Positions 3,804 through 20,789 of a stretch of 64,000 nucleotides of DNA are shown one piece after another; within the stretch, counting starts at the first letter, position 1; every line of letters starts with the position of its first letter. A program made the translations under genes and the position numbers. Origin of the DNA: Escherichia phage outra; sequence record MN850645.1; one strand, given 5' to 3'. Below the pieces are notes generated by a model. The model was not told the origin of the DNA and made no database searches. It saw only the letters and a list, made by a program, of their open reading frames with translations.

Positions 3804-4754
3804 TTAGTCAAGGTTTTTGGTAATACGTGTACAACCATCAGAAGTCAAACCGTCAACTTGAGTTTCCCAAGTGCCATGAATATTTCGGAACAATGTTGTT
3901 ACACCTTTTGGTTCATTAATAATGATTGCCATAACAAGTTTAGGATCGATAACAGACATAATCTTTTCCTCAATACCCTCTGTAATAACATTATTACGCA
4001 CAATATTAATTACATCTTCTTGTACAGAAAGGGTACTTACGTTCTTAAGAGTATATACCTGCTGCGTAGTGTAAATGATACGAACATAACTTACAGAACG
4101 AGTAGGCACAGGTTTACGCGGTCGGCGAAAACGTGGTTTTGGTGAAGATTCAGTCTTACTTTCATTTTTTGAATAATACTCCTCAAACAGTTTAGTAAAT
4201 GTTTTTACATCAACTACAAACCGATCTTTCCTATATGGAGAATTCTTATGTGCACCATTAATACCACTGTTTTCATCGAAGAAAGTAATGTTTTCTTCAG
4301 TTGAATATGTTAGATAATGGTCTGCATCTTTCCAATGTGGTTGTGGACAATGCGGATTACAAACGGAAAGCAGATAACTAATATCTTCTTCCGTTGCACT
4401 AGTATCCAGGAAACACGTATTGTGCACAGTCAGTTGTACTTTTGCAACCATATCCATTTCTTTATCCTCGTTGGCAAGATATTCAGTACGAATAATTTCC
4501 AGAAAACCTTCAGGTGTTACTTCCATAAATGTGTATTCAGGGTGAAGTTCCATATATTCAAATCCACAACCATCTAATTGCTGTAGGAAGTTAGGATAGA
4601 AGAACAAGTCATTAACACTATGAATCAGATCATTGATTTCTGCTTCAGATGTGTAACCAAAACTTTTGTGAATTGCTTCATTAAGAATATGCAGGATACC
4701 CATCTCTTCTGCTGCTTTTTTAACTTCCAGTTTATTAGCGTAAAATGCAATCAT
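3804..4754 (-). CDS. hypothetical protein (316 aa)
   Basis: long ORF in operon orientation, no recognisable motif. Confidence 0.6.
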   Translation of the reverse strand: MIAFYANKLEVKKAAEEMGILHILNEAIHKSFGYTSEAEINDLIHSVNDLFFYPNFLQQLDGCGFEYMELHPEYTFMEVTPEGFLEIIRTEYLANEDKEMDMVAKVQLTVHNTCFLDTSATEEDISYLLSVCNPHCPQPHWKDADHYLTYSTEENITFFDENSGINGAHKNSPYRKDRFVVDVKTFTKLFEEYYSKNESKTESSPKPRFRRPRKPVPTRSVSYVRIIYTTQQVYTLKNVSTLSVQEDVINIVRNNVITEGIEEKIMSVIDPKLVMAIIINEPKGVTTLFRNIHGTWETQVDGLTSDGCTRITKNLD

Positions 4755-4771
4755 TATGTTCTCCTTCTAAA

Positions 4772-5206
4772 TTAGTTTAAAATTTCTTTGGCAATGGTAG
4801 AAGCAAGTTTTCCATCATATTGATTAGGATACTCTGCTTTAAGGTGTTTCATCATATCTGGCATTTTCTTGCCTGTCAAGGCAAATTCTTCAGCAATCGC
4901 TCGAAGGTCATCTTCAGATAGCATTTCTGGCAAATATTTTTCCAGAGTGGTGATATCACGCATAGCTCGCTCACATTTGCTAATGGAAGCATTAACTTTC
5001 TTAAGTGAGTCTAGCTCCTCTTTAGCGTGTGCAATACCAATCTTAACAATGTTAATCATAATATCATCTTCTGATTTATTTAGATTTGCCTTTTGAGTAC
5101 GCGCAAGGTCAAACTCACCAATAATATTAGTTAACAAAGCAAAAGCACCCTTATCGGTTGTACGTGCTAAGATACGATCTGCTTTCATTTGTGTCACAAT
5201 AGACAT
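4772..5206 (-). CDS. GatB/YqeY-domain protein
   Basis: LEKYLPEMLSEDDLRAIAEE and ADGKLASTIAKEIL resemble YqeY signature blocks; 144 aa as in YqeY. Confidence 0.65.
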   Translation of the reverse strand: MSIVTQMKADRILARTTDKGAFALLTNIIGEFDLARTQKANLNKSEDDIMINIVKIGIAHAKEELDSLKKVNASISKCERAMRDITTLEKYLPEMLSEDDLRAIAEEFALTGKKMPDMMKHLKAEYPNQYDGKLASTIAKEILN

Positions 5207-8791: not shown

Positions 8792-8812
8792 TATATTTTC
8801 CTTATTGGTTTG

Positions 8813-9178
8813 TTAAACGTTTTCTAAATCTTTTAAGGCATTACCCAACGTTAGAACAATAACATCGTTTGCTGCCTCTTCCCCATTGATATTGGTGAAA
8901 TTTGGTGTGACAAAAGTAACCATATAAAACTCGTCCACCTGGAAGACAGCAATAACACCATCCATCTTAACATCTTGACGAAAGGAAAAACCAATCATCT
9001 TCTCTTGCAAAGGCATATCCCCTTCCTTCATTACCGCCAGGGAGTTTTCAGGAATGTTATATTTATCTGATCCGATGTAGATGTACGTAATGTTATCTTT
9101 ATCGTGATGATACAGGGTTGCTTTTTCCATATCTAAACCTGACAGATCAAATACGTTAATTTCTTGTGTAGTCTTCAT
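8813..9178 (-). CDS. hypothetical protein
   Basis: start moved to ATG 9178 preceded by GGGAGGA SD. Confidence 0.45.
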   Translation of the reverse strand: MKTTQEINVFDLSGLDMEKATLYHHDKDNITYIYIGSDKYNIPENSLAVMKEGDMPLQEKMIGFSFRQDVKMDGVIAVFQVDEFYMVTFVTPNFTNINGEEAANDVIVLTLGNALKDLENV

Positions 9179-9542
9179 AAATATCCTCCCAAATCCAATA
9201 ATCATCTGTGTAAGTAGGATGCCTTTTATCCCACTCTGCTCTAGCCCAAGCAACCGCTGCTACCAACACATCACCATGACAAGGTTGAGGTGCGCAGAAG
9301 CAAACTAAGTCTTTCCCTTCTAATTCTAACAAATCCTCAAGAGTGATTTTACCACAACGAATTTGTTCCCACAACCACTCTTTATATCTTTGTATAGTTG
9401 ACCCTCGTGGTTCATCATCCTTTAACTTAAAAGGATTTGCAAACTTTGAGGCTTTTAACCCCATATGAGGCATAGCTCTGCCAATGTAAACTGCACCTTC
9501 AGGTATTACTTTACCTAAGTGGTAAAAATTTAATACTTTCAT
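9156..9542 (-). CDS. hypothetical Cys/His-containing protein (CFCAPQPCHGD)
   Basis: track start 9566 is TTG; ATG at 9542 overlaps upstream stop (TAATATG). Confidence 0.45.
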   Translation of the reverse strand: MKVLNFYHLGKVIPEGAVYIGRAMPHMGLKASKFANPFKLKDDEPRGSTIQRYKEWLWEQIRCGKITLEDLLELEGKDLVCFCAPQPCHGDVLVAAVAWARAEWDKRHPTYTDDYWIWEDIYEDYTRN

Positions 9543-9543
9543 A

Positions 9544-9894
9544 TTAACCCAAACACATCTGTGCAATCAAGCCCTGTATAAATTTATTAGCTTCTTTACT
9601 GTCGTAGTCAGTCTCTTCTGGATATCCATCTTCATCGTACACAACTGTACCTTCAATATACCCTGCCTCAATTAAGGCGCGGATCATATCAAATTGCCAG
9701 CATGAGTTACCAAATGGACGTTTACCATTAAAACACTCTTCTTCTCTCCATAACGTAGAGAGTAGTTGTCGGAAATATTCCCGTACAGTGACAGTACCAA
9801 GATCTGAATCCTCAAACATAACATCCAGGGCATCAGGATTGCTTTTCTCTACGTAAGGAATATATTTAACACCATTAATAGTTACATCAAGCAT
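9544..9894 (-). CDS. hypothetical protein (116 aa)
   Basis: ORF in operon orientation. Confidence 0.5.
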   Translation of the reverse strand: MLDVTINGVKYIPYVEKSNPDALDVMFEDSDLGTVTVREYFRQLLSTLWREEECFNGKRPFGNSCWQFDMIRALIEAGYIEGTVVYDEDGYPEETDYDSKEANKFIQGLIAQMCLG

Positions 9895-10257
9895 TTATTT
9901 CTCCTTATCATCATATTCTAGGAACATATCTGCACGATATGCTTTACGCTCTTCAAACTTAGCAGGATCTACAACAATAAGCAATACAAGGTTAACATCT
10001 AAATACTTTTTAACAAATAGAAATAAATCTTTTCCACAGTTAAAACCTACACCAGTATAGGCATCCCCATATTGATCTACTGATTTAATCTTCTTACTAA
10101 CCGTACATTCTATGCTATTCTTTTCTTCTTGGTATAAGGCTTTCCCACCCCAATATGTAAAGAATTTAGTACCGTCAGCACCAAGTTTAAAACCTTCTGT
10201 TGCATGTCCAGCAAATGAAAGTAAACATAACCAAGTAATCATCAGGTACTTTAGCAT
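9895..10257 (-). CDS. putative secreted protein with signal peptide
   Basis: MLKYLMITWLCLLSFAGHA N-terminal hydrophobic signal; GGGTGG SD before ATG 10257. Confidence 0.5.
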   Translation of the reverse strand: MLKYLMITWLCLLSFAGHATEGFKLGADGTKFFTYWGGKALYQEEKNSIECTVSKKIKSVDQYGDAYTGVGFNCGKDLFLFVKKYLDVNLVLLIVVDPAKFEERKAYRADMFLEYDDKEK

Positions 10258-10258
10258 T

Positions 10259-10741
10259 TTAACCACCCAATTGCAAATGTTTAGAAAGAACAATATCCCA
10301 CTGATCACCACAACCATTATCTATGCGGAACATAATGTACGTATCATCTTCTTCTACGACATATAATACCTCATAGGAATTACAACAGCCTTCCCAATTT
10401 TTAACAGCCTCTGGTGTATGATGTGTAAGGATTTCATTACCATCATATGACCAAAACAAAGGGGTAAGGTTTTCGAAGGTCAGTGAAGTAGGGTTTACTT
10501 CATCTTTAACTGCTTCCTCATATTCTTTATGCGTTTGTACTGCTTTAGTTAGTGTACTCATGTCTATCTCCTTTTCTCCTTCTTGACTATGGAGGATAGC
10601 GAACTCTCTAAACTCCACCTCACGCCATGTTTTCAGGTAGTGCTTTATAATTTGATCAACATCTACCTGTTCAACGTTACTTTTCAAGCAATAGTAGTCA
10701 TGGTCTTCACCCATTCTACCCCATATGCTATACATTGTCAT
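10259..10741 (-). CDS. hypothetical protein (160 aa)
   Basis: ORF in operon orientation. Confidence 0.5.
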   Translation of the reverse strand: MTMYSIWGRMGEDHDYYCLKSNVEQVDVDQIIKHYLKTWREVEFREFAILHSQEGEKEIDMSTLTKAVQTHKEYEEAVKDEVNPTSLTFENLTPLFWSYDGNEILTHHTPEAVKNWEGCCNSYEVLYVVEEDDTYIMFRIDNGCGDQWDIVLSKHLQLGG

Positions 10742-11009
10742 CTGATTGATCCTTCACATTGTTCTTGGCATACACAGGAATAACATCATGGTGATCTTTA
10801 TTACTTTCGTCTGTTAAAGCCCAAAACAACTTACCTGCCGGATGTTTAAAGATGTAAGCAATAGGTTCCTCTTCCTGTGCTTCTTTGCTACGGATGCCAT
10901 CCCGCCAGGCAAGCCAAGTGTAGATCATCATCTCTTGACGTTCTTCTTCATTAGGCCACAGATGGGGTAGAAAGTTTTTATCAAACCATTGCTTAAACTC
11001 TTCAGTCAT
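10728..11009 (-). CDS. hypothetical protein (93 aa)
   Basis: ORF in operon orientation. Confidence 0.5.
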   Translation of the reverse strand: MTEEFKQWFDKNFLPHLWPNEEERQEMMIYTWLAWRDGIRSKEAQEEEPIAYIFKHPAGKLFWALTDESNKDHHDVIPVYAKNNVKDQSDDNV

Positions 11010-15994: not shown

Positions 15995-17122
15995 ATGAAA
16001 TACACGATTTATGGTGATATTGTAAGTGTAAATAAAGATATGGGCGTGGAATCTAACTATCTTCCACCTGGATTCTATACTGTTAGTCGTGATCCCCTTG
16101 GCAATTATTTTTTAAGCCGTGGTAATCTGACAGGTGTACCTGATGTTCTGTATGGTGAAACAGAAAAACGAGCAAATCACGTTATCCGTACATTCCATCG
16201 CCGGAGTGCACAAGGTAAAAATACAGGATTGCTTCTGACAGGAACTAAGGGTAGTGGTAAAACTATGTTAGCCAAACTCATTAGTCGTGACCTTGTAGAA
16301 GAAGGTATTCCAACTATTATGGTTACTCAAGCCTACAGCGATGCTAATTTCATTGAACTTATTAGCAAGATCACCGACAAAGCAGTGATTATTTTTGACG
16401 AGTTTGATAAAGTGTATGAGAAGAAACAAGATCAAGAAGCACTTCTCACTTTGTTAGATGGTACTGGCAGTGGTAATAAACTGTTTATTCTAACTAAAAA
16501 CAGTGGCTTTATCTCTGAATTCTTTCTAAATCGTCCTAGTCGTGTGTTTTATAATTTTAATTATGATAAAATCTCACTAGAAACTATGATTGACTATTTA
16601 GATAAAAACCTGGATAACAAAGCACACTTTGATAATTTCCAAAGGCTTTGGGATGTAAGTTTAGAGTTGTCCTTTGATGTGATCCAAGGTATAGTAGAAG
16701 AACTTAATTTCTACCCTGATTTATCCTTTAAAGAATGCATCTCTATGATGGGCGTTTCTTTGGGTGGTGGTAATAAGTGGGATATCAGCAGCGTTGTTAT
16801 TAATGGGAAACTTCAGAAAGTTAGCTGGGTATCTAGTTGGCATAACTTCACACCTGCAATCTTTTTAGGTGGCTCGTGCACACTAGACGTGTACTTGTCA
16901 TCTCCAAGTGATGCAGACTCTAAAGAAGCCCTTGCTAATAGCTCTTACGTGGTTTTTGATGATGAAGGAGATGCTCGAATTCCATTGAATGCGACAAAAA
17001 TGAAAGCAGATCTTATTACAGGCGGTAAAATCGTTGTGTTTAGTGATGATCCAGAAGATTCTTTCCGTATTGTTCTGGAACCAACTATCACCAATGGTGC
17101 AACTTTGGCAAGCGTGTTTTAA
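15995..17122 (+). CDS. AAA+ family ATPase (paralogue 2)
   Basis: Walker A GTKGSGKT, Walker B IIFDEFDK, NRPSR; collinear similarity to 267-1427 product. Confidence 0.8.
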   Translation: MKYTIYGDIVSVNKDMGVESNYLPPGFYTVSRDPLGNYFLSRGNLTGVPDVLYGETEKRANHVIRTFHRRSAQGKNTGLLLTGTKGSGKTMLAKLISRDLVEEGIPTIMVTQAYSDANFIELISKITDKAVIIFDEFDKVYEKKQDQEALLTLLDGTGSGNKLFILTKNSGFISEFFLNRPSRVFYNFNYDKISLETMIDYLDKNLDNKAHFDNFQRLWDVSLELSFDVIQGIVEELNFYPDLSFKECISMMGVSLGGGNKWDISSVVINGKLQKVSWVSSWHNFTPAIFLGGSCTLDVYLSSPSDADSKEALANSSYVVFDDEGDARIPLNATKMKADLITGGKIVVFSDDPEDSFRIVLEPTITNGATLASVF

Positions 17123-17140
17123 GTAAGCCAGCAAATAAAA

Positions 17141-17164
17141 ACCCGCTCCGGCGGGTTTTCTTGT
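17141..17164 (+). terminator. rho-independent terminator
   Basis: ACCCGC-TCCG-GCGGGT stem-loop followed by TTTTCTTGT. Confidence 0.7.
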
Positions 17165-17196
17165 ATTGATGCCAGATTTAATAAGAGGAGTAATAG

Positions 17197-18369
17197 ATGA
17201 CAGCACCAAAATCATGGGAACAATATAAAGAAGAATTAACACCCCTTGCTAAAAATCGCAATATTCAAATCCTGGGTTATGTTGGTGAATGGAAAGGGAA
17301 CAAGACTAAACTTAAGCTATCTTGCCCTAAACATGGAGAGTGGAACACCACGAACATTAATGATTTTAAGAAGGGACGTGGTTGTCCTATCTGTTCTGGT
17401 AAGAAGCCGTTAACATGGGAAACAGAATTGCCGATCTTGGAAGAGATAGCACAGAAGAGGGGGTATCAGGTGTTAGGGTACGTGGGAGAATGGAAAGGGA
17501 ATAAAACAAAACTTGATTTGTTGTGTCATTGTGGTAATAAATGGGATACTACAAGTATTAACAATTTTAAACGTGGTAGCGGTTGTCCACAATGTAAGAG
17601 GGAGAGACAAACAATGTCCGACGATCAACATATTGCAGATTTCTTTTCTACAGGGGAATTTAAGGAAGGCACTATCTTCACCAATACAGGGAAACGTAAC
17701 AAGCGTGATGCAGTATGGATGGTTGAGTGTCCTGTTTGCTCCCATGATGAATATGTTCAAGCAGGTGTTTGTGATGGTAAATTTTACTCTGCAGGACATA
17801 ACCTTAAACAAGGGTATATTCCGTGTCGTTGTGGGAACTATCAGTATACAGAAGACCAGATCACCTATAGGGTAAAAAAGGAAGTAGAAGGGAAAGGGTA
17901 TGTCTGGGTAGATTGGATTACCAAACCCTCTTCTATAGGTAAGTTTAAATATCTTTGTCTTGTGCATGGTGAGCAGATAGGGAGTGCTCGTAATTTATTA
18001 AGCCTCGGTCAAGGTTGTCCACAGTGTGCTGGTCATAATCAACAGCAATTATATATTAATATTGTTAAAGATAATGATATTATAGTTGCTCTTAAGTTTG
18101 GTATATCTAAAGATAGCGATAGACGATTAAACGGTCAAAATAGCCGTAATCTGTTTTTTATGGGGCGTATTTGTTTATATGATTTTAGCACAGTGAAACA
18201 ATGTAGGGCTGCTGAAAGAGCTATAAAGAAAAAATTAAAAACTGGTATTTTAACGGCAAGAGAGTTGAAAGATGGTTATACAGAAACAGTAAGTGTTTCT
18301 GATTTGGAAAATCTTCAAAAAATTATTACACAATATGGTGGCAAATTAGTATACAGTAAGGAGATGTAA
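17197..18369 (+). CDS. Zn-ribbon-repeat protein with C-terminal T5orf172/GIY-YIG-like domain
   Basis: three repeats of about 40 aa each ending in CxxC (GCPICSG, GCPQCKR, GCPQCAG); C-terminal LYINIV...ALKFGISKDSDRRL resembles T5orf172/MUG113 motif; AAGAGGAG SD. Confidence 0.5.
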   Translation: MTAPKSWEQYKEELTPLAKNRNIQILGYVGEWKGNKTKLKLSCPKHGEWNTTNINDFKKGRGCPICSGKKPLTWETELPILEEIAQKRGYQVLGYVGEWKGNKTKLDLLCHCGNKWDTTSINNFKRGSGCPQCKRERQTMSDDQHIADFFSTGEFKEGTIFTNTGKRNKRDAVWMVECPVCSHDEYVQAGVCDGKFYSAGHNLKQGYIPCRCGNYQYTEDQITYRVKKEVEGKGYVWVDWITKPSSIGKFKYLCLVHGEQIGSARNLLSLGQGCPQCAGHNQQQLYINIVKDNDIIVALKFGISKDSDRRLNGQNSRNLFFMGRICLYDFSTVKQCRAAERAIKKKLKTGILTARELKDGYTETVSVSDLENLQKIITQYGGKLVYSKEM

Positions 18370-18921
18370 ATGCGGATTACTGATAAGTATGTGTTCTTCT
18401 TCTCGGCAAAAGATGAATTTAGCAACTGGTATCTATCATCTTTTATTGAACCTTTAGCTCCCAAGTATAATAATTCTATTACAAGTTCTGTTGAATTTAC
18501 TTGTGTGGAACAATATATGATGTGGAGAAAAGCATGTTTGTTTTATGATTACAACATTGCATCTTCTATTTTAACCGGAGATCTAAGATATACAGGAGAA
18601 AAAGAACAGGCATATTATAAGCGACTAGGTAGATTAGTTAAAGATTACGATGAAGCTACTTGGACTTCTTTACGGGAGAAGATTGTCAAGCGTGGTTTGT
18701 ATCTTAAATACACACAAAATGAAGATCTCAAAAATAAACTTATCGCTTACGCAGATAAGGAGTTCGTAGAGGCAAGCCCTTATGATTCTATTTATGGTAT
18801 CAAAATGGGAATGTGGGATCGTGATGTGGAAAATAAGGACTGTTGGAAAGGACAAAATCTTTTAGGAAAATGGCATACAGACCTTGCTGTTTATCTAAAA
18901 GCACAATCTGATATTTCCTGA
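18370..18921 (+). CDS. NADAR-family (YbiA-like, DUF1768) protein
   Basis: FFFS..DEFSNW, EQYMMWRKA and FVEASPYDSIYGIKMG blocks match the YbiA/NADAR pattern; ATG overlaps upstream stop (TAAATG). Confidence 0.65.
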   Translation: MRITDKYVFFFSAKDEFSNWYLSSFIEPLAPKYNNSITSSVEFTCVEQYMMWRKACLFYDYNIASSILTGDLRYTGEKEQAYYKRLGRLVKDYDEATWTSLREKIVKRGLYLKYTQNEDLKNKLIAYADKEFVEASPYDSIYGIKMGMWDRDVENKDCWKGQNLLGKWHTDLAVYLKAQSDIS

Positions 18922-19136
18922 TATTTTGAAAATTTTTATTTTTATAAAAAGGGGTGTGGGTTTCATGTACGGAAATCCACCCTCTGAATAATATATCCAG
19001 AGTAAATATTATTCTGTACTCTGTTAATAAAGTATTTAATTTGTTTGTTTGACTATGGTATCTGATCTTTAAAAGGCATACTATCTCTTAACTACTACTT
19101 ATAACAGAACAGTAAAATCATTTTTATAAAAAGGAC

Positions 19137-19340
19137 AAAATTATTTAAAGTTTTTACAGATTTTTGGGTACAAATTTTGAAAATGAAAAGTTCAAGTTTG
19201 GTCAAAATTATTTAAAGTTTTTGTACGTATTTCTATCCAGATTTTGAAAATGAAAACTTCAATTTTTTAAAAATTCCCCAGTTTATTTAAAGTTTTTTTG
19301 CCTTTTTCCGTAGAAAAATCAAAAATGAAAAGTTCAATTT
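19137..19340. repeat. three tandem imperfect direct repeats of about 67 bp
   Basis: each unit contains TTATTTAAAGTTTTT ... GAAAATGAAAAGTTCAA. Confidence 0.7.
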
Positions 19341-19363
19341 CGTGTTTTTATGGGTGTGCGTAT

Positions 19364-19472
19364 GATAATCATTTTCATTTGTAAATGAGAATCATTATCA
19401 TTTAAGTATGTAAGTGATAATCATTCTCAGTAAGAGAATGAGAATCATTAGCAAATGAGAATTTTCTCATTT
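19364..19472. promoter_or_regulatory. cluster of Fur-box-like palindromes (AATGAGAATCATTATCA etc.)
   Basis: 19384-19400 matches 14/15 of the E. coli Fur consensus core ATGATAATCATTATC; further GATAATCATTCTC-type palindromes at 19416-19472. Confidence 0.5.
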
Positions 19473-19734
19473 AGAGAATAACGCGCAGGGGCGGTGTTTG
19501 TCTCGCGCTCCCGTGTCCCCTCGCCATACAATAAGAATAGCATAACCAACAACAAAAGCAAGCGATTATTTTTATCTTTACATTTCTTTACAAATTTATT
19601 TTAGACGAGCTACCGGCGATCAACCTTCCAACCAGTAGTGCCCTGGTATGTTAGCCCCGCCTTTACGCCGTGGGGGTGGCGCTTCCTCTTCTGTATGTAA
19701 AACAGTATAAGCCCGATCCCTGGGCTTGTCAAGA

Positions 19735-20001
19735 TTATTTTTTGTTTTCTTGCCAGGATAGGACACCTAGCCAAAAATACATGTCGCCCCGCGCCCCTGG
19801 CGGGATCTTGCTTTCCCCGCCGCCACTGCAAGCCCATAGATAACCATTTGCGAACGTATCAAAATGATCTATTTCTTCCACCTTATGATCGCCCAGGTTG
19901 AGAACGGTTTCAACCTTTAAGCCCGTTGCGCTTGCTACCTGGTGCACCGTGCCGCCTTGCCAGCCTAATGAGTGCATGAGGTGTAAAGTAGTATTTGTCA
20001 T
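19735..20001 (-). CDS. hypothetical protein (88 aa), GC-rich, divergent from island
   Basis: ATG 20001 with AAGGG SD; possible minus-strand promoter TTGCTA-18-TATTAT at 20049-20078. Confidence 0.45.
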   Translation of the reverse strand: MTNTTLHLMHSLGWQGGTVHQVASATGLKVETVLNLGDHKVEEIDHFDTFANGYLWACSGGGESKIPPGARGDMYFWLGVLSWQENKK

Positions 20002-20112: not shown

Positions 20113-20141
20113 TTGACGTTCCTCACCTGGTAGCGTATTAT
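20113..20141 (+). promoter_or_regulatory. sigma70-like promoter
   Basis: -35 TTGACG 20113-18, 17-bp spacer, -10 TATTAT 20136-41. Confidence 0.55.
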
Positions 20142-20268
20142 TCATCTTGTCGAGGGGGGCGAGGCACAACGACAATAAACAAAAGGAGGGCGCAATGCAG
20201 GACGGGCAAAGGTGAGGATCTCCACAATCCACCGTCACAATAACATTACTTATAAAAGGTTGATAACG

Positions 20269-20364
20269 ATGATCAAGAAAGAAAACAGCTTGACGGTTGG
20301 AACGATTAACGCTATCATTCTAGCCGTTCCATTTTGGATTGTAGTAGCGGTTATTATCTTTTAA
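20269..20364 (+). CDS. hypothetical membrane peptide (31 aa)
   Basis: hand-translated; hydrophobic; weak SD. Confidence 0.25.
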   Translation: MIKKENSLTVGTINAIILAVPFWIVVAVIIF

Positions 20365-20372
20365 AAATATTC

Positions 20373-20428
20373 TTGACAACGTTTTTTAATCTGATAAGAT
20401 GTATCACATAGGGCGGCAATAGTGCCGC
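20373..20428 (+). promoter_or_regulatory. sigma70-like promoter plus type-B leader hairpin
   Basis: -35 TTGACA 20373-78, -10 TAAGAT 20395-400, hairpin GCGGCA-ATAG-TGCCGC 20413-28. Confidence 0.6.
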
Positions 20429-20452
20429 TCATAACAGAAGAGAGAAATAATC

Positions 20453-20725
20453 ATGGCATCATATAGCGCATCAATGATCGTAGCTGGCATCACTGGTAAA
20501 CCTATGCGCGGTGGCGGATCTTTCGCTAACATCAATATTGATGGGCGTTTATCCCTGGATGCAGCGATCACCGTGGCACGGGAAACATTTAAAAAAGAAT
20601 GTAATTTCAATAAACAAGATTATCTCGGCTTCGTTATTGAAAAAACCGCGCGCTTTGTGGATTATAAAAGCCCGAAAATGATCGACACTACACTAAAAGC
20701 GCAAGATGTAGCGTTTTTGCTTTAA
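20453..20725 (+). CDS. hypothetical protein (90 aa)
   Basis: ORF downstream of promoter/hairpin cassette; host-like codons. Confidence 0.55.
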   Translation: MASYSASMIVAGITGKPMRGGGSFANINIDGRLSLDAAITVARETFKKECNFNKQDYLGFVIEKTARFVDYKSPKMIDTTLKAQDVAFLL

Positions 20726-20728
20726 GGC

Positions 20729-20789
20729 TTGACACTTAAAAATAATTTTGTAATATATACCACATAAGGCGGGGAAATGGTTTCCCGCC
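20729..20789 (+). promoter_or_regulatory. sigma70-like promoter plus type-A leader hairpin
   Basis: -35 TTGACA 20729-34, -10 TAATAT 20751-56, hairpin GGCGGGGAAA-TGG-TTTCCCGCC 20768-89. Confidence 0.6.

Follow-up and report, generated by a model that had tools for sequence, protein, structure and literature searches.

The phage is a Justusliebigvirus, i.e., a phi92-like E. coli myovirus, and two genes lie side by side on the forward strand of the 64-kb window (the whole stretch of DNA that was analysed). They are here called ORF A and ORF B, the latter an orthologue of the anti-defence gene adfN, and reading the sequence confirmed their stated coordinates and lengths (Table 1). Both are intact, with dN/dS below 1, in all 13 related phages whose alleles were extracted for comparison, and are therefore regarded as real genes rather than chance open reading frames. 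No second copy of either was found in the window by tblastn. The neighbours of ORF B are the predicted nuclease ORF A, an AAA-ATPase gene and non-coding DNA. The terminator between the AAA-ATPase gene and ORF A has a 9 bp stem with five GC pairs, followed by a T-tract (RNA fold -16.9 kcal/mol, z -2.8), and is annotated as bidirectional in phage Paula and in the Phapecoctavirus Schickermooser. A promoter scan of the interval from this terminator to ORF A found no convincing sigma-70 promoter. The stem-loop downstream of ORF B was not called by the consensus terminator scan, and Rfam and tRNA scans around the locus found no RNA element.

Table 1. Features of the ORF A/ORF B locus (positions in the window).
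Feature	Position	Strand	Evidence
Intrinsic terminator hairpin, between upstream AAA-ATPase gene and ORF A	17138..17159	+	Terminator scan
Shine-Dalgarno GAGGAG of ORF A, 6 nt before ATG	17185..17190	+	Sequence; RBS AGGAG annotated at the same place in phi92
ORF A, 390 aa, CapR zinc-finger array and T5orf172/GIY-YIG domain; phi92 gp222 orthologue; predicted homing-endonuclease-type	17197..18369	+	Pfam, PHROG, AF2
Hypervariable block, coding sequence of zinc-finger array	17200..18015	.	Nucleotide diversity, 13 phages
Zinc-finger module 1, aa 4-69; ligands C43, H46, C63, C66	17206..17403	+	Module HMM, E 1e-40
39-nt direct repeat; second copy 17476-17514, 82% identical, 201-nt spacing = one module	17275..17313	+	Repeat search
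Zinc-finger module 2, aa 71-136; C110, C112, C130, C133	17407..17604	+	Module HMM, E 6e-40
Divergent zinc module 3, aa ~139-215; C178, C181, C210, C212	17611..17841	+	One of four Pfam CapR stretches
Zinc-finger module 4, aa 216-280; C254, H257, C274, C277	17842..18036	+	Module HMM, E 5e-33
T5orf172/GIY-YIG-superfamily domain, aa 284-390; Y286, K300-F-G302, R310, E340, E363	18046..18366	+	
Shine-Dalgarno AAGGAG of ORF B, within last ORF A codons	18358..18363	+	Sequence; 13/13 alleles; annotated RBS in phi92
ORF B, 183 aa, NADAR ADP-ribosylglycohydrolase, AdfN^Bas60 orthologue (anti-DarTG1)	18370..18921	+	Pfam NADAR; near-identity to bas60_0111
Stem-loop 3' of ORF B; possible terminator without canonical T-run	18950..18985	+	RNA fold -21 kcal/mol, z -2.6

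ORF A matches Pfam CapR (PF21817) in four stretches (E 2.9e-43), with further matches to DUF723 and DUF4379, and these CapR/DUF723-type zinc fingers sit N-terminal to the T5orf172 domain. As a whole it matches PHROG 681, an 'endonuclease' family (E 9e-87), and its AF2 model (mean pLDDT 91, pTM 0.49) resembles a multi-domain 'beads on a string'. The GCPxC motif occurs three times (GCPIC at aa 62-66, GCPQC at aa 129-133 and aa 273-277), as the earlier note had counted, but the number of zinc modules is four by the Pfam CapR stretches. In the additional, divergent module (about aa 139-215) the motif is CPVC...CRC, and such a CxxC...CxC pattern is also that of PLE CapR (PMC8096241). Across 30 homologues, C130 and C133 of module 2, C178 and C212 of module 3, and C254, C274 and C277 of module 4 are invariant. 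The four modules are expected to read DNA.

The T5orf172 profile scores marginally on full-length ORF A (19.1 bits, below the cutoff of 20), and above the cutoff on the isolated C-terminal domain (21.1 bits); 10 of 15 homologues match it, with a best E of 1.4e-5. Y286, R310, E340 and E363 are invariant in the 30 homologues, and their order and the secondary structure suggest that they are the catalytic positions. Cleavage by the ICP1 nuclease Odn requires Arg and Glu residues to which an Arg and a Glu of ORF A correspond (PMC8263062). A Foldseek search of the full-length model against the PDB returned no significant match (best E 0.03, with a weak SLX1 match at rank 50). Because the beads-on-a-string model, with its pTM of 0.49, defeats global comparison, the search was repeated with the isolated C-terminal domain. 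This domain has the GIY-YIG fold. A profile of this domain detected no GIY-YIG entry among PDB sequences, and the relationship is thus detectable only through Pfam and the fold. The T5orf172/GIY-YIG-like C-terminus that had been proposed from the sequence is nevertheless upheld by the marginal isolated-domain match, the residues and the fold. The second motif is KFG instead of the YIG of the GIY-YIG nucleases I-TevI and SLX1, no sequence similarity to PDB entries is detectable, and the domain order is the reverse of that of I-TevI, the nuclease domain of ORF A being C-terminal. This domain would cut DNA, and ORF A is predicted to be a site-specific nuclease of the homing-endonuclease type; neither a cleavage site nor an 'empty site' lacking the endonuclease gene was found for it.

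Repeated CapR-type zinc fingers followed by a C-terminal T5orf172 domain are shared with ICP1 gp174, gp165 and others (Netter, 2021, PMC8096241; Barth, Dunham and Seed, 2023, PMC10448857), and ORF A is 27.8% identical to an ICP1 CapR-domain T5orf172 protein over 82% of its length (tblastn). Both the architecture and the repeat recombination of this class have been described before (PMC10448857). In-frame, repeat-mediated indels of one module are about 200-230 nt in ORF A and 228 nt in ICP1 gp174. ORF A is present as a single copy per genome, fixed at one locus across two genera, whereas ICP1 carries 3-5 copies. ICP1 Odn (Gp88) has the T5orf172 nuclease domain in common with ORF A, E340 being the counterpart of its catalytic Glu by position, but binds DNA through a RepA_N domain in place of CapR fingers. 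PLE CapR, conversely, has the zinc-finger DNA-binding domain in common and has lost the nuclease domain. No counterparts of the Odn and CapR targets (PLE origin, capsid promoter) were identified for ORF A.

The coding sequence of the zinc-finger array is hypervariable, which is the one modestly new observation here. Amongst the 13 phages, nucleotide diversity is 0.15-0.29 in the array and 0.01-0.04 in both flanks. The block has a dN of 0.186 and a dS of 0.554, compared with a dS of 0.08-0.12 in the flanks. Divergence in the array reaches 31% at the nucleotide level, while the NADAR protein is 97-100% identical and the genomes are otherwise ~97-99% identical. The alleles encode 325-467 aa and three to five modules: this phage and Bas62 have four, those of Antha and Bas61 lack exactly one module, and those of Bas60 and alia have one more. 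The 39-nt repeat pair, spaced by one module, is the likely substrate for this gain and loss. Simple diversifying selection was discarded because omega never exceeds 1 across ORF A (sliding-window Nei-Gojobori values of about 0.2-0.55; ~0.3 for the array, and 0.24-0.33 with the 13 alleles). The elevated dS is more in line with alleles that are ancient or were imported, or with local hypermutation. Recombination probably reshuffles the DNA-reading array between phages, with whole modules gained or lost between the 39-nt repeats, while the nuclease domain and both neighbouring genes remain nearly constant. A test of ORF A as a recombination boundary has no discriminating power here: left-flank and right-flank distances show no correlation (rho 0.03), but neither do those of adjoining halves within one flank (rho 0.12-0.16). 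Nor is the array the sole hypervariable island: a comparison with phi92 over 31.7 kb (median identity 97.3%) revealed about five divergent or unaligned patches, and the array is one among several mosaic spots.

ORF A sits at one fixed position in all of the ~61 Justusliebigvirus records and is syntenic in the sister genus Phapecoctavirus, while its homologues in Klebsiella, Serratia, Vibrio and T4-like phages are found in unrelated contexts. A fixed locus in two genera is unlike the patchy spread of an actively cycling selfish endonuclease, so ORF A may have been domesticated, a possibility we entertain tentatively. It could have become a sequence-specific regulator, in the manner of PLE CapR or of autorepression by I-TevI; alternatively, it could serve as a weapon nuclease that attacks rival phages or satellites, similar to ICP1 Odn. 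In either case the changing array would track changing targets. The intact state of all 13 alleles under the constraint noted above and the single copy in the window are in keeping with domestication, for which PLE CapR and ICP1 Odn are precedents within the CapR/T5orf172 family (PMC8096241, PMC8263062). The invariant catalytic residues, however, speak against a repressor that only binds DNA. Nor could a target, satellite or operator sequence be identified for a domesticated ORF A, and the sequence by itself cannot tell domestication from continued homing between alleles.

The latter leads to an account that we consider unlikely, in which ORF A is an active, allele-competing endonuclease whose own array sequence not only does the reading but is also the site of the contest. 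During mixed infection, it would cut rival alleles at or near the locus, and repair would copy the winner's array and co-convert adfN. Such competition would account for a raised divergence at both synonymous and non-synonymous sites that is sharply limited to the array, for the intactness of all alleles despite fixation, and for ORF A having remained next to adfN from a time before the two genera diverged. If true, adfN, an anti-defence gene, would be carried along by the nuclease, which would both spread and preserve it.

ORF B matches Pfam NADAR (PF08719) over aa 13-168 with 126 bits against a cutoff of 35.1 (E 2.3e-36), in agreement with the earlier assignment to this family. It is identical to bas60_0111 (AdfN^Bas60) at 180 of 183 residues (98.4%) and 99.5% identical to the proteins of Bas61 and Bas62, and the one to three substitutions that separate it from these three are all conservative. 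AdfN^Bas60 neutralises DarT1, rescues phages RB69, T5 and Bas25 on DarTG1 hosts, and is active when expressed ectopically in E. coli without other phage factors (Johannesman et al., 2025, Nat Commun, PMC11825919). The proposal that a phage NADAR acts as an anti-DarT factor is thus borne out by published experiments on a 98.4%-identical protein and, having already been demonstrated there, is not a new hypothesis. ORF B is the orthologue of that protein, with which it shares genus, locus and catalytic residues (BASEL Bas60, Bas61 and Bas62), and the literature on it suggests that ORF B has anti-DarT1 activity as well.

Comparison with PnNADAR (8BAU; ~30% identity, E 2.5e-12) showed that the NADAR catalytic residues are conserved, as are eight of the nine ADP-ribose-contact residues (E47, K54, K84, R88, W98, R102, E134 and D139 in ORF B); the ninth, W133, is replaced by Y142. 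The catalytic pair E47/K54, seven residues apart, corresponds to E43/K50 of PnNADAR. ORF B shares the fold family, the Glu-x6-Lys pair and the ADP-ribose-binding residues with PnNADAR and with DarG1 and DarT1-associated NADARs (Schuller et al., 2023, PMC11543638), but differs from the latter in lacking both a DarT partner and the basic N-terminal extension of DarG1. No DarT gene was found near it in the ORF list or by Pfam and PADLOC, and it is a phage-encoded orphan with no adjoining toxin. At the third catalytic position it has a YbiA-type Glu (E134), where DarT1-associated NADARs have Asp and T4-like phage NADARs have His. As the phage's orphan DarG1-like antitoxin, AdfN, ORF B would strip the ADP-ribose that host DarT1 places on phage DNA guanines, allowing replication to proceed in DarTG1-carrying E. 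coli.

It is quite improbable that ORF B is instead a YbiA/RibX-type N-glycosidase that disposes of reactive riboflavin-pathway intermediates, or an enzyme for some other small-molecule or RNA ADP-ribose conjugate, with anti-DarT1 as a side activity. In its favour, ORF B matches TIGR02464, 'riboflavin biosynthesis intermediates N-glycosidase', a domain-level equivalog, with 109.8 bits against a cutoff of 73.7, it has the YbiA-type Glu, and the BASEL annotation of its orthologue is 'putative YbiA-like N-glycosidase'. Against it, the near-identical AdfN^Bas60 directly neutralises DarT1 and rescues three phages (PMC11825919), ORF B is stand-alone and unfused with no rib genes amongst the neighbouring ORFs or annotations, and YbiA-subfamily NADARs are reported to de-ADP-ribosylate DNA as well (PMC11125620). 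Annotations of the NADAR within the genus vary between 'GTP cyclohydrolase II', 'YbiA-like N-glycosidase' and 'hypothetical', and could be updated to AdfN.

The stop codon of ORF A (TAA, 18367-18369) directly abuts the ATG of ORF B at 18370 with a 0-nt gap, in place of the stop/start overlap described in the earlier note, and the junction is kept in all 13 alleles. A strong Shine-Dalgarno sequence belonging to ORF B itself, AAGGAG, lies 6 nt ahead of this ATG. Amongst 53 NADAR loci in IMG/VR, an upstream ORF A homologue occurs only in four Stephanstirmvirinae loci; none of the 49 more distant phage loci has a comparable upstream gene, and the single CapR ORF found there is on the opposite strand and without a nuclease domain. 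In Phapecoctavirus, two small genes lie between the ORF A homologue and the NADAR, and the closest ORF A homologue outside the subfamily (KP2025) has no NADAR neighbour. The coupling to a nuclease, which the same note had singled out as unusual, is therefore not borne out as meaningful, the adjacency being restricted to Stephanstirmvirinae, AdfN^Bas60 being active alone and ORF B having its own AAGGAG. A two-protein module, in which the nuclease recognises or processes ADP-ribosylated or damaged DNA and works with the NADAR towards repair or anti-defence while translational coupling sets the stoichiometry, could be argued from the conserved TAA/ATG junction, the two hairpins that bracket the pair and the action of both proteins on DNA, but is very improbable in view of these three points (PMC11825919) and of an array so variable beside so constant a NADAR, which is hard to square with a shared substrate.

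We therefore consider it probable that this phi92-like coliphage carries two independent genes, for AdfN and a homing-endonuclease-type nuclease, next to each other within a single short transcription unit. What the analysis itself shows is the identity of the domains, the conservation of the catalytic residues, the near-identity to a tested protein, a hypervariable array and an adjacency confined to one lineage. Homing-endonuclease-type genes are known to settle beside useful genes (PMC10448857), and the adjacency and the TAA/ATG junction would represent ordinary tight packing inherited within Stephanstirmvirinae rather than a two-protein machine. Most of what the pair shows is ordinary and has an explanation already: the domain calls were correct, functional coupling is unsupported and novelty is low, since the literature contains both the anti-DarTG1 role, for a NADAR that is essentially the same protein, and a description of the class of zinc-finger/T5orf172 homing-endonuclease genes to which ORF A belongs. 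The main value of the analysis is negative, in that the pair needs no follow-up as a discovery. Justusliebigvirus nonetheless provides a set of naturally occurring alleles of a CapR-finger nuclease with three, four or five modules, and the availability of Bas60, Bas61 and Bas62 in the public BASEL collection makes it convenient for testing target specification by the array and any continued homing.

The two genes lie in a 4-kb region of phage outra that shares 99.9% identity with Escherichia phage vB_EcoM_ESCO8 and 95–99% with some 55 other phi92-like members of the genus Justusliebigvirus (subfamily Stephanstirmvirinae), including the BASEL phages Bas60 (PaulScherrer), Bas61 (EmilieFrey) and Bas62 (JohannJBalmer). 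In the records of these relatives, the first gene (ORF A) is labelled "endonuclease" or "hypothetical", and the second (ORF B) "putative YbiA-like N-glycosidase", "GTP cyclohydrolase II" or "hypothetical". The same coliphage locus occurs in the "Campylobacter phage" records A110a, A150 and B15 (MG065689, MG065639, MG065650; host C. jejuni), at 90–91% identity or, for B15, in a Phapecoctavirus-like form; a mislabelled host or a mistaken sample is the probable cause. The earlier description of the pair is confirmed with small corrections, one of which concerns the gene junction. The stop of ORF A had been said to overlap the start of ORF B, but ORF A ends in GAG ATG TAA and ORF B begins on the next base, so that the genes abut with neither spacer nor overlap. 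ORF A is preceded by a GAGGAG Shine-Dalgarno sequence six nt 5′ of its start; the 37 nt that separate ORF A from the upstream terminator, when scanned, yielded no convincing sigma-70 promoter. The AAA+ ATPase encoded upstream, labelled "FtsH-like protease" or "ATPase or Zn metalloprotease" in other records, is nearly invariant across the genus (99.6–100% protein identity, dN/dS 0.006); its only similarities are weak ones, to P-loops of the STAND, DnaC and clamp-loader types.

Features of the ORF A–ORF B locus and its surroundings (window coordinates)
Feature	Position	Strand	Description
AAA+ ATPase	15995–17122		375 aa, upstream of ORF A; PHROG 2376
Intrinsic terminator	17138–17159		between ATPase gene and ORF A
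ORF A	17197–18369	+	390 aa, as described earlier
Codon 323 of ORF A	18163–18165		Gly
Shine-Dalgarno of ORF B	18358–18363	+	AAGGAG, six nt 5′ of ATG
ORF B	18370–18921	+	183 aa, as described earlier
Stem-loop	18950–18985		stable, no T-run, 3′ of ORF B
Tandem repeat	19136–19266		67-nt unit ×2 (81% match)
Tandem repeat	19368–19429		29-nt unit ×2
G+C hairpins	19666–19681, 19788–19804		two of several
−35 boxes	20113, 20290, 20373, 20729		TTGACA/TTGACG

ORF B is a NADAR protein, as the earlier note had proposed: its Pfam NADAR match reaches 126 bits against a cutoff of 35.1, and it also scores above cutoff on TIGR02464 and matches PHROG 1017 and a PADLOC candidate family. Its sole sequence relative in the PDB is the NADAR domain protein 8BAU (E 2.5e-12). 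Nine ADP-ribose-contacting residues have been named in a Phytophthora NADAR (Schuller et al., 2023; PMC11543638), and with the two-residue offset of the 8BAU chain all nine land on the expected letters. ORF B keeps eight of them unchanged (E47, K54, K84, R88, W98, R102, E134, D139), while the ninth, a tryptophan, is replaced by Y142. Glu134 groups ORF B with the YbiA-type NADARs, and apart from the DarT1-associated NADARs, which have Asp at this position, and those of T4-like phages, which have His.

The suggested anti-DarT role proved to be correct but already tested. ORF B shares 180 of 183 residues with bas60_0111, and 99.5% identity with the Bas61 and Bas62 proteins. Named AdfN^Bas60 by Johannesman et al. 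(2025; PMC11825919), bas60_0111 needs no phage factor to neutralise the toxicity of DarT1 in E. coli. It enables RB69, T5 and Bas25 to plate again on hosts with DarTG1 but does not counter DarTG2; a knockout in the native phage was not reported (PMC11825919). With the role demonstrated for a near-identical protein, there is little new here. The published results and the residues compared here support a mechanism in which ORF B would hydrolyse the ADP-ribose attached by host DarT1 to guanines of phage DNA, and replication would thereby be restored.

ORF A combines an array of zinc fingers with a C-terminal nuclease domain. Pfam detects four stretches of CapR homology (E 2.9e-43), together with the CapR-related zinc fingers DUF723 and DUF4379, and PHROG 681 ("endonuclease") is matched at E 9e-87. 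Three repeats ending in GCPxC had been noted, and these are present (aa 4–69, 71–136 and 216–280), but the array has a fourth, divergent module at about aa 139–215 (CPVC...CRC). The T5orf172-like C-terminus also holds: in the full-length protein the match (aa 291–349) scores 19.1 bits, below the cutoff of 20, and the C-terminal 112 aa scanned alone score 21.1 bits, above threshold. T5orf172 is matched by 10 of 15 homologues. When 30 homologues with identities as low as 23% are aligned, zinc ligands C130, C133, C178, C212, C254, C274 and C277 are invariant, as are Y286, K300, G302, R310, Q314, E340, D359, G360, E363 and T364 of the C-terminal domain. The predicted full-length structure (pLDDT 91, pTM 0.49) has a beads-on-a-string appearance.

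The Vibrio satellite PLE repressor CapR and putative T5orf172 homing endonucleases of ICP1 served to define the CapR domain, a DNA-binding CxxC...CxC zinc finger (PMC8096241), and a conserved Glu is needed for T5orf172 nuclease activity in ICP1 Odn (PMC8263062). Proteins with repeated CapR/DUF723-type fingers followed by T5orf172 have been described as a class (Barth, Dunham & Seed, 2023; PMC10448857). From its domains, invariant catalytic residues and family precedent, we infer that the ORF A finger string may bind a long, allele-specific DNA site, close to which the GIY-YIG-type domain would nick or cut. Codon 323, just ahead of the third strand of the nuclease domain (FFM[G/E]RICLYDF), encodes Glu in all 12 other alleles compared; the column varies in distant homologues, so the Gly of the window allele is probably neutral.

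The array is hypervariable. Among 13 phages from which the ATPase, ORF A and NADAR genes were extracted, ORF A is intact in every allele but comes in lengths of 325, 329, 390–397 or 465–467 aa, corresponding to three, four or five modules. Protein identity to the window allele is 69–99.7% for ORF A, against 99.6–100% for the ATPase C-terminus and 97–100% for NADAR. Nucleotide diversity rises from 0.01–0.04 to 0.15–0.29 exactly from the ORF A start, and is back near 0.03 early in the nuclease domain.

Substitution rates by segment (Nei-Gojobori)
Segment	dN	dS	omega
ATPase C-terminus	0.0005	0.078	0.006
ORF A finger array	0.186	0.554	0.33
ORF A nuclease domain	0.028	0.116	0.24
NADAR	0.007	0.12	0.058

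No 20-codon window in a sliding-window scan reached an omega above 1; the array pattern is thus one of deep silent and replacement divergence under continuing purifying selection. Exchange of old alleles or a locally raised mutation rate fits better than simple positive selection. The alleles are mosaic (KKP_3264 matches the window in module 1 and not elsewhere), and a 39-nt direct repeat, spaced at 201 nt or one module, is an obvious substrate for module gain and loss. This behaviour agrees with the account of the class by Barth et al., in which recombination between degenerate repeats of ICP1 gp174 removes one 228-bp unit in frame (PMC10448857). The array is not unique within the genome, as about five divergent patches are found in 31.7 kb compared with phi92 (median identity 97.3%). 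Genealogies across ORF A were uncorrelated, and equally so in adjacent control segments, making that comparison uninformative. ORF A could still be homing, be engaged in competition between alleles, or have taken on a domesticated role as regulator or weapon. The alleles are intact and the gene is fixed at a single locus in two genera, a pattern that tends to favour a retained function.

The pairing had been regarded as an unusual coupling. The order ATPase, terminator, ORF A, NADAR is constant in every Justusliebigvirus record seen, and in the sister genus Phapecoctavirus it recurs with two small genes between a 486-aa endonuclease and a 56% identical NADAR. However, among 53 IMG/VR NADAR loci, searched in six frames over 6-kb flanks with HMMs of ORF A and the nuclease domain, an upstream ORF A-like gene occurs only in four, all Stephanstirmvirinae; in one of the remaining 49, CapR fingers are encoded on the opposite strand by an ORF that lacks the nuclease domain. 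No NADAR was found near the ORF A homologue of Klebsiella phage KP2025 (46% identical), the closest full-length relative outside the subfamily. In the Seunavirus phages 4MG and SSE121, NADAR lies without a CapR gene in a replication/repair block. Directly 3′ of NADAR in these loci (4MG 4509–4946; SSE121 4522–4959) are genes for a small HNH endonuclease and an exonuclease, so that a nuclease of another type adjoins a NADAR in a second lineage; as both belong to a DNA replication/repair block, this neighbourhood may be coincidental. Confinement to the subfamily, the ability of AdfN^Bas60 to act alone and the strong Shine-Dalgarno sequence of ORF B argue against a functional two-protein unit. The two genes could be translationally coupled across TAA|ATG, but this is not needed, and the pairing is lineage-specific gene packing beside a homing-endonuclease-type gene.

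The stretch 3′ of NADAR is poor in ORFs and carries short tandem repeats, over which Rfam gave no match; the first is labelled only "repeat_region" in phages inny and alia. GC content changes abruptly, from 23–25% at 19000–19400 to 50–52% at 19600–20000 (remaining genome about 35–40%), and the GC-rich patch contains hairpins and a conserved small minus-strand gene homologous to phi92 gp224. A run of near-consensus sigma-70 promoters at 20113–20756, 5′ of a series of small plus-strand genes, suggests a block of early genes, each with a promoter of its own. In phi92, the large subunit of the anaerobic ribonucleotide reductase (8798–10876, equivalent to an early portion of the window) is annotated as split or spliced ("spliced variant", two-piece join). 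The HNH-fold protein gp200 is encoded nearby, a hint of additional intron or homing-endonuclease activity in this part of the genome.
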